From IMG/VR virus record IMGVR_UViG_3300032290_000189, positions 1 through 24,502 of that record: a DNA stretch of 24,502 nucleotides. The stretch is one strand, 5' to 3'. The stretch's first letter is position 1; each line of letters starts with the position of its first letter. Source of the stretch: a virus. Taxonomy: Duplodnaviria; Caudoviricetes. Shown here one piece after another: positions 19,867-24,502 of the stretch. The notes below the pieces were generated by a model. It was not told the DNA's origin. It saw only the letters and a list, made by a program, of their open reading frames with translations, and searched no databases. The position numbers and the translations under genes are program-made.

Positions 19867-20114
19867 TTATTCCCATCCTTGCCAATACGCTTCTCCACCA
19901 TCAGGGCGTTGTCGCGTACTGCGCGTAGTTCCTTCATCACGGCATCGAGAGCCTGGACTTTCATCCAGCACATCTCGCGCTCCGCGATACTTTGGGCGAA
20001 CTTCCAGTCGGCTACCGCCTGAATCTCAACGTCCTGCACCATCTCTTGAAAGAGGGCGTCATTGAGGATCATTTCGGCCTTCATGCCGCGCTGGATCTGC
20101 TCGTCGAGGGTCAC
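19863..20114 (-). CDS. Small helical head-morphogenesis protein (83 aa)
   Basis: RGxxAxxIL...W...ERE pattern; overlaps portal stop (GTGA) and scaffold start (ATGA); SD GAGG. Confidence 0.7.
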   Translation of the reverse strand: MTLDEQIQRGMKAEMILNDALFQEMVQDVEIQAVADWKFAQSIAEREMCWMKVQALDAVMKELRAVRDNALMVEKRIGKDGNK

Positions 20115-22183
20115 TGCTGCACCTCACGAGGGGCCATCTGTTCTGCCTGGATCTTCATGTCCGTCTGCTGAAGCTGCGTCTGGTACTTCAACTGCAACTC
20201 AGTGAGGGCGATTTCACGATCCTGCGCCATCTGGTCACGCGCACGGTCGTCATCTCGCAGCATCTTCTCCCGCTGTAGCTGGAGTTCCGCTGCTTTCTTC
20301 TGAATGTCTGCCTGAATGGACTGCGCCTGTACCTGCGCCAGCATTTCCTCTGGGCTAGGCTTGGCTCCCTTGGGGTCCTGATAGTTGGCCGGTACGGAGT
20401 TAAAGAACATCGAGGCGTCCGCGAATCCAGCCATCTCAACCATCTTCCGAAGCGTGTTCGAGTACTGAGCGACCGACACAACCGGGTTGTCCGCACCGAT
20501 GGTCTGGAGAATCAACTCCTGCTTTGCGGCAATCGCTTCGAGCTTCTGTCCGCGTTCGGTCGTCGTACCGCCTCCAAGGGCAATATTGATGGAAACATCC
20601 ATCTCTGCGTCCCATGAACGAGGGTCAATCTCTACCCACTGGTTACGAAGGCGCACCACGCGGGGACGATCCTGGTGCTTGATGATGAGTCGCAGCAGCC
20701 CACTAAACAGCCGCTTCATCCCGGTTTCCGCGAAGATACGCGCAATCAACTCCAGAGACTCCTGCGCTGCGGTTACGGTGGCGTTTACAGCCGCCTGAGT
20801 CGAGGACTGGAGGGTTTCAGCGGCAAGTCCCTGCGAAGCCTTGGAGCGCCCCGTACGCTGCTCCTTCACGTCATCCATGTACTGAAGCACCGGGAACGCC
20901 GCTTGTCCCACGAACGGAGTCTCGTAGGGTTGCACCATGCCGGGAGCACGCATACGGATGATTCCGCCATTCTCATTGTTGAGAACGTCTTCCATGTTGA
21001 CCTGCCCCTCAACCACCCCGGTACGGGGGTTGATCGACTGCGACAGGCTATTCAGCATCTCGCGCATCACAACCGACTTGATACGCTGCACATCCATCGT
21101 TACGTCGGAGATGGAGTTCCCGTAGAACTGGTGAGGACGGGGATCGGGACAGAACGCCGCGAACGGAACCTCGTCACAGGGGACGTTGTGGATGATGTCG
21201 GAGTCTGCGCCTAGCGCACAGATGCGGCGAAGCTCCGCTATGCCGTCTCCATCAAAGTCGATACGCGCATAACACTCGTCATAGCGCACCCGGCGCAGCG
21301 CATCATTCGCAGCGGAATCGTACTGCCCGTATTCCTTGGTGCGTGTAACGACTTCAATATCAACAGGTTGGTCACCCGCGGCTTCCTCGATCTCGTCCTT
21401 GTCGTAGCCCATTGCCACGAGTTCGCTGACGGTCGGATAACTGCGGTGGACAACGATAGATGCGTCATCGAAGGAAGTAGCGCGAGAGTCAATGAGCAAT
21501 TCTTCAGGGGGGATCGCTTTGACTCTCGCACGCTTCGTCTCAGTCTTCCGCTTGATGGTTCCGGCGAAAGTCTGGAGAGCTTGATAATTCGGGTCCTGAC
21601 CCATCGACGGGTCGTGCGGCATCTCTTCTACCTGGATATCGGCTACCTCGATACCCTCTTGGCCCATCAGGGCTTCGAGCGATAGCTGGTCGATACCAGA
21701 AAACGGAGTTGCCTCTACTTTGGTGTCTGTATCCCACCACCACTTAATGATTCCGGTCTTGAGGACCAGCGCATCCTTGAAGGCCGAATAGAACTCCTGG
21801 AAGCCAGGGTTGTCCTTCTGGATGATGTGGTTAATGTATTCGGTAGCCTGTTCCGCTACGGGAACATCTTCAGGCTTGTTCGGAGCGTACTCTACAACCT
21901 TCTCCGAGCCAAAGAAGATTCGCATCAGGCTAGGGAGGATCGCGGCTACGGAATCGCGTACATCTCGGGAGATGACCTTGCTGCGGCCCTCTACCTCGTC
22001 TCCGTAGGGATCTCCGTCGTAGCGCCGTTGGGATTCCTCGCGCTGCGGCTTGACCTCAGCCATGACGAATGACTCAGCATCCGTCACCATCGCGGCAACG
22101 ATAGCTTGCAGTTCATCTTCCGACATGCCTTCCGGCTGTTGGTCGATGGATTCGTCTTCGTTAGCCGAGGTTTGGTATTCCAT
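20111..22183 (-). CDS. Portal protein (P22-like, 690 aa)
   Basis: GRSKVISRDVRD..LPSLMRIF, FKDAL..KTGIIK, DVQRIKS..R, ELIARIFAETG motifs; Gln-rich coiled-coil C-terminal barrel; first gene of head module. Confidence 0.92.
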   Translation of the reverse strand: MEYQTSANEDESIDQQPEGMSEDELQAIVAAMVTDAESFVMAEVKPQREESQRRYDGDPYGDEVEGRSKVISRDVRDSVAAILPSLMRIFFGSEKVVEYAPNKPEDVPVAEQATEYINHIIQKDNPGFQEFYSAFKDALVLKTGIIKWWWDTDTKVEATPFSGIDQLSLEALMGQEGIEVADIQVEEMPHDPSMGQDPNYQALQTFAGTIKRKTETKRARVKAIPPEELLIDSRATSFDDASIVVHRSYPTVSELVAMGYDKDEIEEAAGDQPVDIEVVTRTKEYGQYDSAANDALRRVRYDECYARIDFDGDGIAELRRICALGADSDIIHNVPCDEVPFAAFCPDPRPHQFYGNSISDVTMDVQRIKSVVMREMLNSLSQSINPRTGVVEGQVNMEDVLNNENGGIIRMRAPGMVQPYETPFVGQAAFPVLQYMDDVKEQRTGRSKASQGLAAETLQSSTQAAVNATVTAAQESLELIARIFAETGMKRLFSGLLRLIIKHQDRPRVVRLRNQWVEIDPRSWDAEMDVSINIALGGGTTTERGQKLEAIAAKQELILQTIGADNPVVSVAQYSNTLRKMVEMAGFADASMFFNSVPANYQDPKGAKPSPEEMLAQVQAQSIQADIQKKAAELQLQREKMLRDDDRARDQMAQDREIALTELQLKYQTQLQQTDMKIQAEQMAPREVQQ

Positions 22184-22241
22184 CTTAACTATGGTTAAGT
22201 ACTAGCATGGAACTAAAGTTAACGCAAGGGGGCCTCTCCCG
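22184..22241. promoter_or_regulatory. 58-bp divergent control region between portal and terminase
   Basis: AT-rich; palindrome CTTAAC-TATG-GTTAAG at 22184-22199; on - strand TTGCGT (22227-22222), 17 nt, TAGTAC (22204-22199) promoter-like; SD-like AAGGGGG for terL. Confidence 0.55.
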
Positions 22242-23639
22242 ATGAGCAATTCTGTCTTCTCCGAATGGCTTGAGCGATATCACGCAAACCCCGTCCTGTT
22301 TGTTCAGGAAGTGATTGGGGTCGATCCAGACGCATGGCAAGCAGAGTTCATGAACGCAGTCGCCACCGGGAAGCGCCGTATCTCGATTCGCTCCGGCCAC
22401 GGTGTCGGCAAGTCTACGGCGGTGTCCTGGTTGATGCTCTGGTTCCTGCTCACAAGGAACCCATGCAAGGTCGTTGTGACCGCTCCGACCGCCCCACAGT
22501 TGTTCGACGCCCTGTTCGCTGAACTGAAGCGATGGATCAAGGCATTGCCGCAGCCGATCCTCGATTTGCTGGAGGTCAAGGCCGAGCGCATCGAGTACAA
22601 GGCTAGTCCAGAAAGTGCCTTTATTTCGGCTAGAACGAGCCGTGCGGAGTCGCCGGAAGCTCTGGCTGGTATCCACTCAGAGAACGTCCTGCTGATCGCT
22701 GACGAAGCCTCTGGCGTGCCAGAGCAGGTCTTCGAGGCTGCGTCTGGTTCTATGTCCGGCCACTCTGCCTGTACCATCCTGATCGGCAACCCGGTGCGTG
22801 GTAGCGGCTACTTCTTCGACACCCATCACAAGTTGGCATCGGAATGGTTCACGATGCGGGTTTCCTGCGATGACTCGCCGCGAGTGTCCAAGGAGTTCAT
22901 CCGAGAGATCGCCATGCGCTATGGCGAGGAGTCGAACGTCTACCGGGTCCGCGTGCTGGGTGAGTTCCCGAAGTCGGACGACGATACGGTGATTCCTTAC
23001 GAGTTGATCGAGGCGGCGACCACCCGTGACGTGGTGGCGAACCCTGAAGCGCCTATCGTATGGGGTCTGGACGTGGCCCGGTTCGGCACGGATAGCTCGT
23101 GTCTGGTGAAGCGCCAGCGCAACATCATCCTCGAACCTCCTAGAAAGTGGCGCAACCTCGACCTCATGAGTCTAGTGGGGGCAGTGGTAGCCGAATACAA
23201 CAGCACAGACAAGAAACCTGTGGAGATTCTTGTAGATAGCATCGGCCTCGGTGCGGGGGTAGTGGATCGTCTGCGGGAACTGAAACTCCCGACGAGGGGA
23301 ATTAACGTCAGCGAGTCCCCGGCACTGGGGGCTACCTACGCCAACCTGAGAGCGGAGCTTTGGTACAAGGCAAAAGCGTGGCTGGAGAAGCGAGACTGCA
23401 AGATTCCTGGAGATGAGCGGCTGGTAGGGGAACTCTCCGCGATCCGGTACGGGTTCACTTCTGGCGGGAAAATCAAGATCGAAGCCAAGGAGGACATGCG
23501 CCGCAGGGGTCTACCCAGCCCTGACGTGGCAGACGCCTTCGTTCTCACTTTTGCTAGCGATGCTGGGGTGGCCCTGTACGGGACCAGCTACTTGAGCGAC
23601 TGGGCAAAGCCGATCAAGCGGAATCTGGCGATTGCGTGA
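22242..23639 (+). CDS. terL: Terminase large subunit (465 aa)
   Basis: Adenine-binding WQ, Walker A SGHGVGKS, Walker B LLIADEASG, coupling motif IGNP, nuclease GLDVARFGTD and SPDVADA. Confidence 0.96.
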   Translation: MSNSVFSEWLERYHANPVLFVQEVIGVDPDAWQAEFMNAVATGKRRISIRSGHGVGKSTAVSWLMLWFLLTRNPCKVVVTAPTAPQLFDALFAELKRWIKALPQPILDLLEVKAERIEYKASPESAFISARTSRAESPEALAGIHSENVLLIADEASGVPEQVFEAASGSMSGHSACTILIGNPVRGSGYFFDTHHKLASEWFTMRVSCDDSPRVSKEFIREIAMRYGEESNVYRVRVLGEFPKSDDDTVIPYELIEAATTRDVVANPEAPIVWGLDVARFGTDSSCLVKRQRNIILEPPRKWRNLDLMSLVGAVVAEYNSTDKKPVEILVDSIGLGAGVVDRLRELKLPTRGINVSESPALGATYANLRAELWYKAKAWLEKRDCKIPGDERLVGELSAIRYGFTSGGKIKIEAKEDMRRRGLPSPDVADAFVLTFASDAGVALYGTSYLSDWAKPIKRNLAIA

Positions 23640-23998
23640 CCGATATGGAAAGGCGCAGCCGTCCGCTGGGAATACGCTACCTCCGTAAAGTGTGCCGGGA
23701 ATATCAAATCAAACTGCGGCTGATGGAATGGGACATACGGGTGGGGTGGGGGAGGGAGGTCGATGATCCCGACTACTGGGCAGGAGAAATGGACCGCGAC
23801 TGCGAAGGCAACGCTTGGTGGTCGGTGGAGGAGAGGAGGGCGATTATTCTCCTCGCTAAGGGTTCTAGCGCGCCGCTAGAGACGCTGAAGCATGAACTCC
23901 TGCATCTCCGACTGGAAGGACATCATGACGCATCTAAGAAGCGTTACGACGAGCATTACGAGTGGGGACTGAACGCCATCGCCGACTGCATAAAGTGA
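23636..23998 (+). CDS. Small zincin-like protein with HExxH motif (120 aa)
   Basis: TLKHELLHL motif with downstream E (EHYE); GTGA overlap with terL stop. Confidence 0.65.
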   Translation: MTDMERRSRPLGIRYLRKVCREYQIKLRLMEWDIRVGWGREVDDPDYWAGEMDRDCEGNAWWSVEERRAIILLAKGSSAPLETLKHELLHLRLEGHHDASKKRYDEHYEWGLNAIADCIK

Positions 23999-24014
23999 TG
24001 CATAAATGCATAAA
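23987..24014 (+). repeat. Three copies of TGCATAAA
   Basis: Exact copies at 23987-23994, 23999-24006, 24007-24014. Confidence 0.8.
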
Positions 24015-24021
24015 CGGTCCC

Positions 24022-24050
24022 TTTACAAAAAGAGTTAACTATGCTTAACT
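24022..24050 (+). promoter_or_regulatory. Sigma70-like promoter candidate overlapping TTAAC repeat motif
   Basis: TTTACA (24022-24027), 17 nt, TTAACT (24045-24050) with TG just upstream; -10 is non-consensus. Confidence 0.4.
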
Positions 24051-24055
24051 GTAAC

Positions 24056-24290
24056 CGCAAGTGAACCACTGCCTGAGTCACTCGTGACGGGGGTGTAGTA
24101 ACTAGTCGTGGTGAGGTTCCCTCGAAACGCGGGGAGTTGGGCCACGTTAATTCTGTTTCGTCCGCAAGACCTGGACGCCAGGGAGCGGGGAACGAAGCCC
24201 TGTAGCGAAAGCAGGGGAGCAACCACAAAGCGGTTGCCGGACGCCAACGGAAGCGTGGTCGAGACAAACTTCTAGCGAAGCGTCTTTTTA
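24056..24290 (+). ncRNA. Candidate structured non-coding RNA (or ssDNA hairpin element), family not recognised
   Basis: No credible ORF; multiple stems seen by eye (24077-24088, 24107-24146, 24170-24182, 24198-24216, 24219-24237), upstream promoter-like sequence, T5 tract at 24285-24289. Confidence 0.45.
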
Positions 24291-24383
24291 GGAACCTACG
24301 GAGGTTCTGCTTACTTCTTCCTCCTGCTACTCCAATACCTCAGTCGTACTCTCCATCCCAACACCAGATCACAGTCAGTTTGC

Positions 24384-24502
24384 AAAAAAAAAATTAGACA
24401 GGGTTGCGCTCTAGGGGACAACCTAAACCAGTGGACAAAGAGTTGCGCTCTCAGGGGGAGCATATACAACTCGCCCCCGGCCCTGGCAGGGTAGGGGGGG
24501 GG
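24384..24502. repeat. A10 tract, two GTTGCGCTCT(C)AGGGG direct repeats and terminal C/G runs; possible packaging/terminus-associated region
   Basis: A10 at 24384-24393; repeats at 24403-24417 and 24442-24457; CCCCC then G9 at window end. Confidence 0.5.

Follow-up and report, generated by a model that had tools for sequence, protein, structure and literature searches.

A predicted structured RNA of about 252 nt is encoded on the + strand downstream of the large terminase gene (terL) of a podophage, and the element very probably functions as an RNA. To judge from the sequences compared, it very probably represents a real family of phage structured RNA, one apparently undescribed so far. Phage-encoded structured RNAs of about 250 nt are few, and most are without a known function. 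The window, which is the whole stretch of DNA analysed here (24,502 nucleotides; IMGVR_UViG_3300032290_000189), is a 24.5-kb podophage fragment with an estimated completeness of 66%. An initial annotation, made from this DNA alone, had proposed a novel phage structured RNA on the + strand and had linked it to DNA packaging by way of a missing terS gene. Covariation, conservation exceeding that of synonymous sites and the absence of Rfam matches uphold the first part; the packaging argument is not supported.

The minus strand of the window carries portal, scaffold, capsid, tail and lysis genes, and the C-terminal stretch of terL matches solved large terminases (Table 1). The portal gene is visible in 61 of the 80 terL loci compared, all taken from viral contigs, and in 59 of the 61 it lies downstream of and collinear with terL. 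In the remaining two, L001 and L015, the portal gene is upstream of and divergent from terL, and the same arrangement is found in the window. In these three sequences, then, terL and the cassette downstream of it run opposite to the portal gene, giving a divergent portal-terL junction. After terL in the window comes a 120-aa open reading frame (ORF), followed by the RNA element and then, at the contig end, a motif made up of a C-run, a G-run and TATAT. The small protein encoded by the ORF, with its HELLH motif, has five database matches only; an annotated putative peptidase occupies the same place after terL in Sinorhizobium phage phiM5.

Other elements were seen in related loci. A resolvase-like ORF, recognised by eye, lies within a kilobase upstream of terL in L002 and L020, and a resolvase is annotated near terS in MW202879. 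A different, long-hairpin element (CAACACGCATG ... CAGCCGTGTTG), sometimes repeated, is found no more than about 350 nt after terL in the collinear relatives L049, L052 and L066, with a related hairpin in L071; it gave no Rfam match at cut-off and no ARAGORN gene.

Table 1. Coordinates of the features of the window.
Feature	Position	Strand	Remarks
SU10-type portal	20111..22183	-	PF23899, E 8e-207; first gene of the minus-strand head/tail cluster
14-bp palindrome, second copy	22185..22198	.	between the divergent portal and terL starts
Large terminase (terL)	22242..23639	+	phrog_2, E 9e-48; inverted relative to portal and head genes
120-aa ORF with invariant HELLH motif	23636..23998	+	only a 26-codon remnant in L015
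103-codon ORF	23956..24267	-	open in the same frame in L015
Promoter-like TTTACA, 17-nt spacer, TTAACT	24022..24050	+	predicted +1 at G24057
14-bp near-palindrome TTAACTATGCTTAA	24035..24048	.	overlaps the predicted -10; operator- or late-promoter-like
Predicted structured ncRNA, about 252 nt	24057..24308	+	84% identity to L015 over 251 aligned columns
5' domain: P1 (24057-62 with 24101-06) closing hairpin P2 (24067-24095)	24057..24106	+	compensatory changes
P3 with inner arm P3a	24107..24146	+	outer stem invariant, pair probability >= 0.94
Central domain: P5 (24170-82), P6 with GNRA loop (24199-24215), P7 (24219-37)	24151..24252	+	
P8 hairpin	24253..24283	+	2 compensatory changes (beside a gap, alignment-dependent), 1 one-sided change
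P9, 3'-terminal hairpin	24291..24308	+	one of 7 pairs broken in L015, the other 6 invariant
C-run/G-run/TATAT motif	24461..24502	-	resembles the end of the left direct terminal repeat in phiM5

Conservation and fold of the element

Only two distinct members of the element were found. One is shared by the window and L001, two almost identical phages whose elements are a single base apart; the other is that of L015, whose terL and portal are 86% and 72% identical to those of the window. L015 matches the window over positions 24019-24308, and its version of the element, at about 272 nt, has an extra hairpin after P2. Identity at fourfold sites is 41% in terL (213 sites) and 42% in portal (226 sites), compared with 84% for the element. 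This conservation stops directly 3' of P9; the spacer beyond is 47% identical to L015, against 45% for shuffles. In L015 the HELLH-motif ORF upstream has been mostly lost and the RNA element has been kept. The span first drawn for the element (24056 to 24307) is altered slightly, to start at about 24057, and the promoter-like region at 24022-24050 lies outside it.

The stems of the initial annotation, all of which are found with their loops where it had placed them, were drawn from the window alone, so that scoring them on L015 amounts to a blind test. Covariation, which had been named as a check on the RNA, was found: five of the 48 pairs show compensatory changes, 40 are the same, one has a one-sided change and is still paired, and two are broken. 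When the 40 substitutions are placed at random, the mean is 0.71 compensatory pairs (P 2.4e-4, 100,000 permutations) and 8.2 broken pairs (P 0.002). A separate control on these stems gave 1/500. In a refined fold of 76 pairs, which was partly fitted to the window and L015, nine pairs are compensatory (two of them, in P8, being alignment-dependent), five have one-sided changes and remain paired, and two are unpaired in one phage; the other 15 substitutions fall at unpaired positions. None of 500 shuffles reached nine compensatory pairs, and slid controls gave 0-1. With just two distinct sequences, significance of R-scape grade is out of reach, and the covariation case for the predicted fold, strong for two independent sequences, stays below that grade.

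For the single sequences, the folding-energy z-score is -1.39 in the window, with 20/200 shuffles folding as well, and +0.10 in L015. A z-score relative to shuffles had also been proposed as a check, with folding no better than shuffles counting against the RNA; taken strictly, this is what the single-sequence folds of the window and L015 gave. Weak z-scores of this kind are common for natural multi-domain RNAs when folded as single sequences. The two-sequence consensus fold has a z-score of -3.3 and was equalled by 0/300 column shuffles, although its covariation-energy term alone (5.5 observed; best of 300 shuffles 5.75) was matched by at least one shuffle.

The claim that the RNA is read from the + strand is favoured by three observations. 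The energy of the consensus fold is -82.75 on the + strand versus -70.0 on the minus strand; all five one-sided changes in the refined fold retain a G-U or canonical pair on the + strand; and the P6 loop changes from GAAA in the window to GGAA in L015, which is GNRA in both. These observations bear on the suggestion that the element acts as DNA rather than RNA, through hairpins or cruciforms related to an origin or to packaging. DNA hairpins would produce compensatory changes as well, and the element is near the genome terminus; however, every one-sided change of the G-U type is consistent with the + strand, the P6 loop remains GNRA, the helices are imperfect and of limited length, the 5' boundary coincides with the start predicted from the promoter, and collinear relatives carry the terminus motif without the element. 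A DNA-level role is thus highly improbable.

The initial annotation had seen no credible ORF here. An open minus-strand frame does exist in both phages, and the 18-nt insertion in L015 leaves it intact, but it carries no coding signature. Its codon differences are five synonymous versus 13 non-synonymous and are flat over codon positions (7, 8, 9), its fourfold sites are 24/27 identical versus 41% in real genes, its start and stop differ between the phages, and it has no Pfam or PHROG match. A minus-strand protein gene at 23956-24267, collinear with the structural genes, is barely credible and appears largely refuted by these comparisons. Nor do the differences within the element follow a codon-position pattern in any of the six frames. 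The constraint thus acts on nucleotides and not on protein.

In the 5' domain, P1 has one compensatory and two one-sided changes and a mismatch in the window, and P2 has two compensatory changes. The hexamer 24101-24106 is self-complementary in both phages (ACUAGU and GCUAGC; P 0.03, post hoc), which could permit dimer pairing, but P1 accounts for both of these changes. P3 with P3a differs by a single U-G to U-A change. Compensatory pairs of the central domain number one in P5, one in P6 and two in P7.

The central domain can be closed in either of two mutually exclusive ways: by a local helix (24155-65 with 24185-98), which has a probability of about 0.5, or by a 13-bp long-range helix (24151-64 with 24238-52), which is present in the consensus minimum-energy fold. 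Constrained energies for the two folds are -90.9 and -95.0 in the window and -102.1 and -102.1 in L015, so that their predicted stability is near-equal, and comparison of the window with L015 reveals no covariation that separates the two helices. The local fold contains an invariant AA-GA/GA internal loop (24162-88), a putative motif which we take to resemble a kink-turn with a 2-nt bulge. A candidate 5-bp pseudoknot, pairing GUUGG at 24136-40 with CCAAC at 24244-48, is invariant and without covariation.

Towards the 3' end, a GACGC/GCGTC stem had been proposed. It is indeed invariant, but its probability in the consensus ensemble is 0.11, compared with about 0.86 for P8, a local hairpin into which its 3' strand pairs instead. 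The TTTTT that follows (24285-24289) is not conserved in L015, and is thus not a conserved terminator tail.

Invariant runs of 40, 19, 14, 13 and 13 nt, unpaired bases included, are shared by the window and L015, the longest being only modestly unusual (P 0.02). Such runs are as would be expected of tertiary or protein contacts, but the competing central helices could explain the longest one without any protein.

Homologue searches and the probable genome terminus

No family of Rfam 15 matches the element at the gathering cut-off in either the window or L015, in agreement with its proposed novelty. Scans of both by E-value gave sub-threshold matches only, and no ribozyme or intron family was among them. 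The best Rfam score for the window is that of Polynucleobacter-1 RNA (RF01718; 13.8 bits versus a cut-off of 37, E 1.5, 24134-24236). This candidate was rejected: it has no counterpart in the L015 record, and its model also gives sub-threshold matches in 7/14 control genomes. The accessible part of PMC2864571 lists this RNA from Burkholderiales and from fresh water or estuary. ARAGORN predicted no tRNA or tmRNA gene in the window, L001 or L015, and Rfam gave no match to either; together with the lack of any hit to the pistol ribozyme model, this agrees with the initial annotation, which had recognised no tRNA, tmRNA or ribozyme core.

Scans of viral and genome contigs with DNA patterns, checked with nhmmer or the RNA model, found no member beyond L001 and L015; two of the viral scans covered 38/64 and 61/64 parts, and full flanks were obtained for 80 loci in three scans. 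Four genome matches to a P4/P5 pattern were discarded, being isolated, about 30 nt long and overlapping long ORFs. Scans based on terL (viral, metagenome and genome contigs) and on the HELLH ORF (120 aa) found no further close relative. Searching with the RNA model retrieved 3/97 sources (the three used to build it), 0/75 in a second set and 2/5 whole records, while blastn against cultured phages and plasmids returned 22-24-nt chance matches or none. None of the collinear relatives that were searched, most of them fragments, carries the RNA, which so appears dispensable for the wider phage group. Literature searches turned up no description of the element; the partly accessible PMC10690425 reports thousands of short viral RNA candidates, 29-151 nt long, and its candidate alignments, which are only partly searchable, may include a sub-hairpin.

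The C-run/G-run/TATAT motif lies some 155 nt beyond the RNA on its 3' side, and the contig ends in the G-run of this motif. The closest cultured relative, phiM5 (terL 56% and portal 43% identical), carries the same motif, directly after which its left terminal repeat, annotated as 357 bp (1-357), comes to an end. The motif aligns across the window, L001, L015, phiM5 and four collinear relatives, lying directly before terL in the collinear relatives, and likely marks a genome terminus or packaging site. phiM5 differs in that its terL is collinear and directly follows the repeat; the RNA model gave no full-length match in the first 8 kb of phiM5, and one 25-nt match (E 0.15). Just inside the motif, at 24400-24467 of the window and 4114-4193 of L001, imperfect repeats occur at a spacing of 39-40 nt (GTTGCGCTCT...GGGG). 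They are possible terminase binding sites, in a region that differs between the near-identical window phage and L001.

The initial packaging argument relied on the apparent absence of terS. A terS profile, built from five relatives of which two are PHROGs-confirmed as terS, matches 50/80 related terL loci (one weakly) and has no match in the window, L001 or L015. In relatives, terS lies upstream of the terminus motif or kilobases from terL; the distance is about 5 kb in MW202879, which is complete, and terS is also present in G003, another complete record. Completeness of the three RNA-bearing records is 66%, 25% and 12%, and they extend only 0-0.7 kb beyond the terminus motif, so that absence of terS cannot be claimed for them. 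Instead, with a fragment that ends at a terminus-like motif and relatives that keep terS farther off, the "missing terS" is most likely an effect of truncation. There is no terS in the 0.65 kb of L015 beyond the motif; in the RNA-bearing clade, therefore, terS is not in the adjacent position.

Predicted transcription and possible roles

Upstream of the element is a promoter-like sequence whose counterpart in L015 is TTGACT, 17 nt, TTAATT, with a G at the same +7 position. The predicted +1, G24057, is the first base of P1, the closing helix, in both phages. A strict sigma-70 consensus scan called no promoter at 24022-24050, as the second hexamer has no A at position 2 and is a non-canonical -10. 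Six sets of RNA reads gave no coverage of the element, a result that speaks neither for nor against its transcription.

The 14-bp near-palindrome overlapping this -10 recurs between the portal and terL genes. Using the window-derived pattern and allowing up to two mismatches, the 7,698 bases of L015 contain just three sites, one at the RNA and the other two where portal and terL meet; 78 other terL loci, totalling 611,164 bases, contain one. The RNA, terL and portal may therefore be served by a common regulator or late promoter, as far as the motif's distribution can indicate. A CtrA box was considered and rejected: its canonical form, TTAA-N7-TTAA in the available part of PMC9437464, has a 7-nt spacer, against 6 nt at the two window sites and the RNA site of L015. 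More TTAAC/GTTAA half-sites are found at 7454-7476 of L015; immediately downstream of them, past the terminus motif, are a promoter-like sequence and a gene, both divergent.

The best reading, held tentatively at somewhat under an even chance, is that the element is transcribed on its own as an RNA of about 250 nt, under regulation shared with the packaging genes, and acts in trans by binding a protein. It draws on the compensatory pairs, the conservation above that of fourfold sites, the promoter-like signal at P1 and the presence of the 14-bp motif in both phages. Transcription would start from the element's own promoter, placing the 5' end at G24057, and the common 14-bp motif would switch on the RNA together with the terminase and portal genes. 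The transcript would fold into a compact multi-helix shape that could bind a host or phage protein in trans, acting as a decoy or as a scaffold during virion assembly. An anti-defence decoy, raised initially, is one form of this trans-acting reading and is speculation; if true, it would be a new RNA-based means for phages to handle host proteins. A 5' leader is argued against by the lack of a credible sense ORF 3' of the element, the first plausible + gene in L015 being some 700 nt later.

It has also to be considered whether the element is a cis-acting 3' element or switch of the terL transcript, which might stabilise or end the + message and shield the terminus from read-through, toggling between the two central folds. 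It does come last in the terL unit, ahead of the terminus-like motif, was found only where terL is inverted, and has exclusive central helices of near-equal stability in both phages, although covariation does not separate them. P9 is listed by an intrinsic terminator scan in the window, but the U-runs are not kept in L015: that after P8 is unconserved, the P9 tail is weak, and terminator-like sites overall number 3 versus 2.1 expected. Moreover, the RNA has a conserved promoter-like signal of its own, and 250 conserved nt presumably exceed what a terminator needs. A cis-acting role is on balance unlikely.

Returning to the trans-acting reading, the predicted 5' end, the fold supported by covariation, the competing helices and the motif shared with packaging genes make the element ready for in vitro probing.

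Comparison with known RNAs

P3 and its 3' linker resemble the first stem and linker of pistol ribozymes, and the GUUGG/CCAAC pseudoknot is invariant, which together raise the idea of a self-cleaving or other ribozyme, for instance a pistol-like core with large insertions. The pseudoknot is without covariation, however, and the helix order, catalytic trinucleotide and cleavage-site dinucleotide of pistol ribozymes are not in place by eye. The pistol model (RF02679) has no match at E values up to 10, and neither homologue matches a ribozyme or intron family. A ribozyme is accordingly a very improbable explanation.

The phi29 pRNA is, like the element, a phage ncRNA with a multi-way junction, and the element is encoded next to a packaging ATPase gene. 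As a packaging RNA the element would bind to the prohead, the portal or the terminase; alternatively, its being transcribed towards the terminus would license cutting there. Its location between terL and the terminus-like motif, the upstream motif common to terL and portal, and its tracking of the inverted-terL arrangement fit such a role. However, the need for pRNA is known only in phi29-like phages, according to the part of PMC5066667 available, and the phage studied here, unlike phi29, has a full, canonical large terminase (phrog_2) with an SU10-type portal and capsid. Its relatives have terS (50/80 loci) and no RNA, and the absence of terS here is uninformative. The pRNA oligomerises via two interlocking loops, as described in the accessible parts of PMC5066667 and PMC7617512, whereas three alternative folds of the element contain no conserved loop-loop run of at least four Watson-Crick pairs between hairpins, the only pairings found being bulge-to-linker and palindromes in linkers; nor is there an Rfam match to pRNA. 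Complementarity between the RNA and the terminus is at chance level (125/300 and 30/300 shuffles as good), and its registers differ. A packaging RNA of any kind is quite unlikely. The fuller proposal, in which a packaging cofactor of a canonical large-terminase, terminal-repeat podophage would be co-regulated by promoter with terL and portal and would recruit or license terminase at the genome end, is improbable on the sequence evidence. If true, a packaging role would overturn the view that RNA use there is confined to phi29-like phages, and with such a cofactor a packaging RNA would be known for the first time beyond the phi29 group.

Like the element, cabRNA, the CBASS-activating phage RNA, is a structured phage RNA from the terminase region (PMC10686824, in the part available). 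Ornate RNAs encoded by phages are also known whose function is unknown, and one of these, GOLLD, rises during lysis; in the accessible text of PMC12286853, GOLLD and ROOL resemble the element in being phage-encoded, intergenic, multi-helix and supported by covariation, with function unknown. These two RNAs are the closest in kind to the element but far larger: the same text gives sizes of 659 nt for ROOL (env-120) and often over 800 nt for GOLLD, compared with about 250 nt for the element. They often lie by tRNA islands, and the element also differs in having no tRNA genes nearby and no match to their Rfam models. As an intergenic, multi-helix, covarying and non-coding RNA, judged from two distinct sequences, the element falls in the class of orphan phage ornate ncRNAs.
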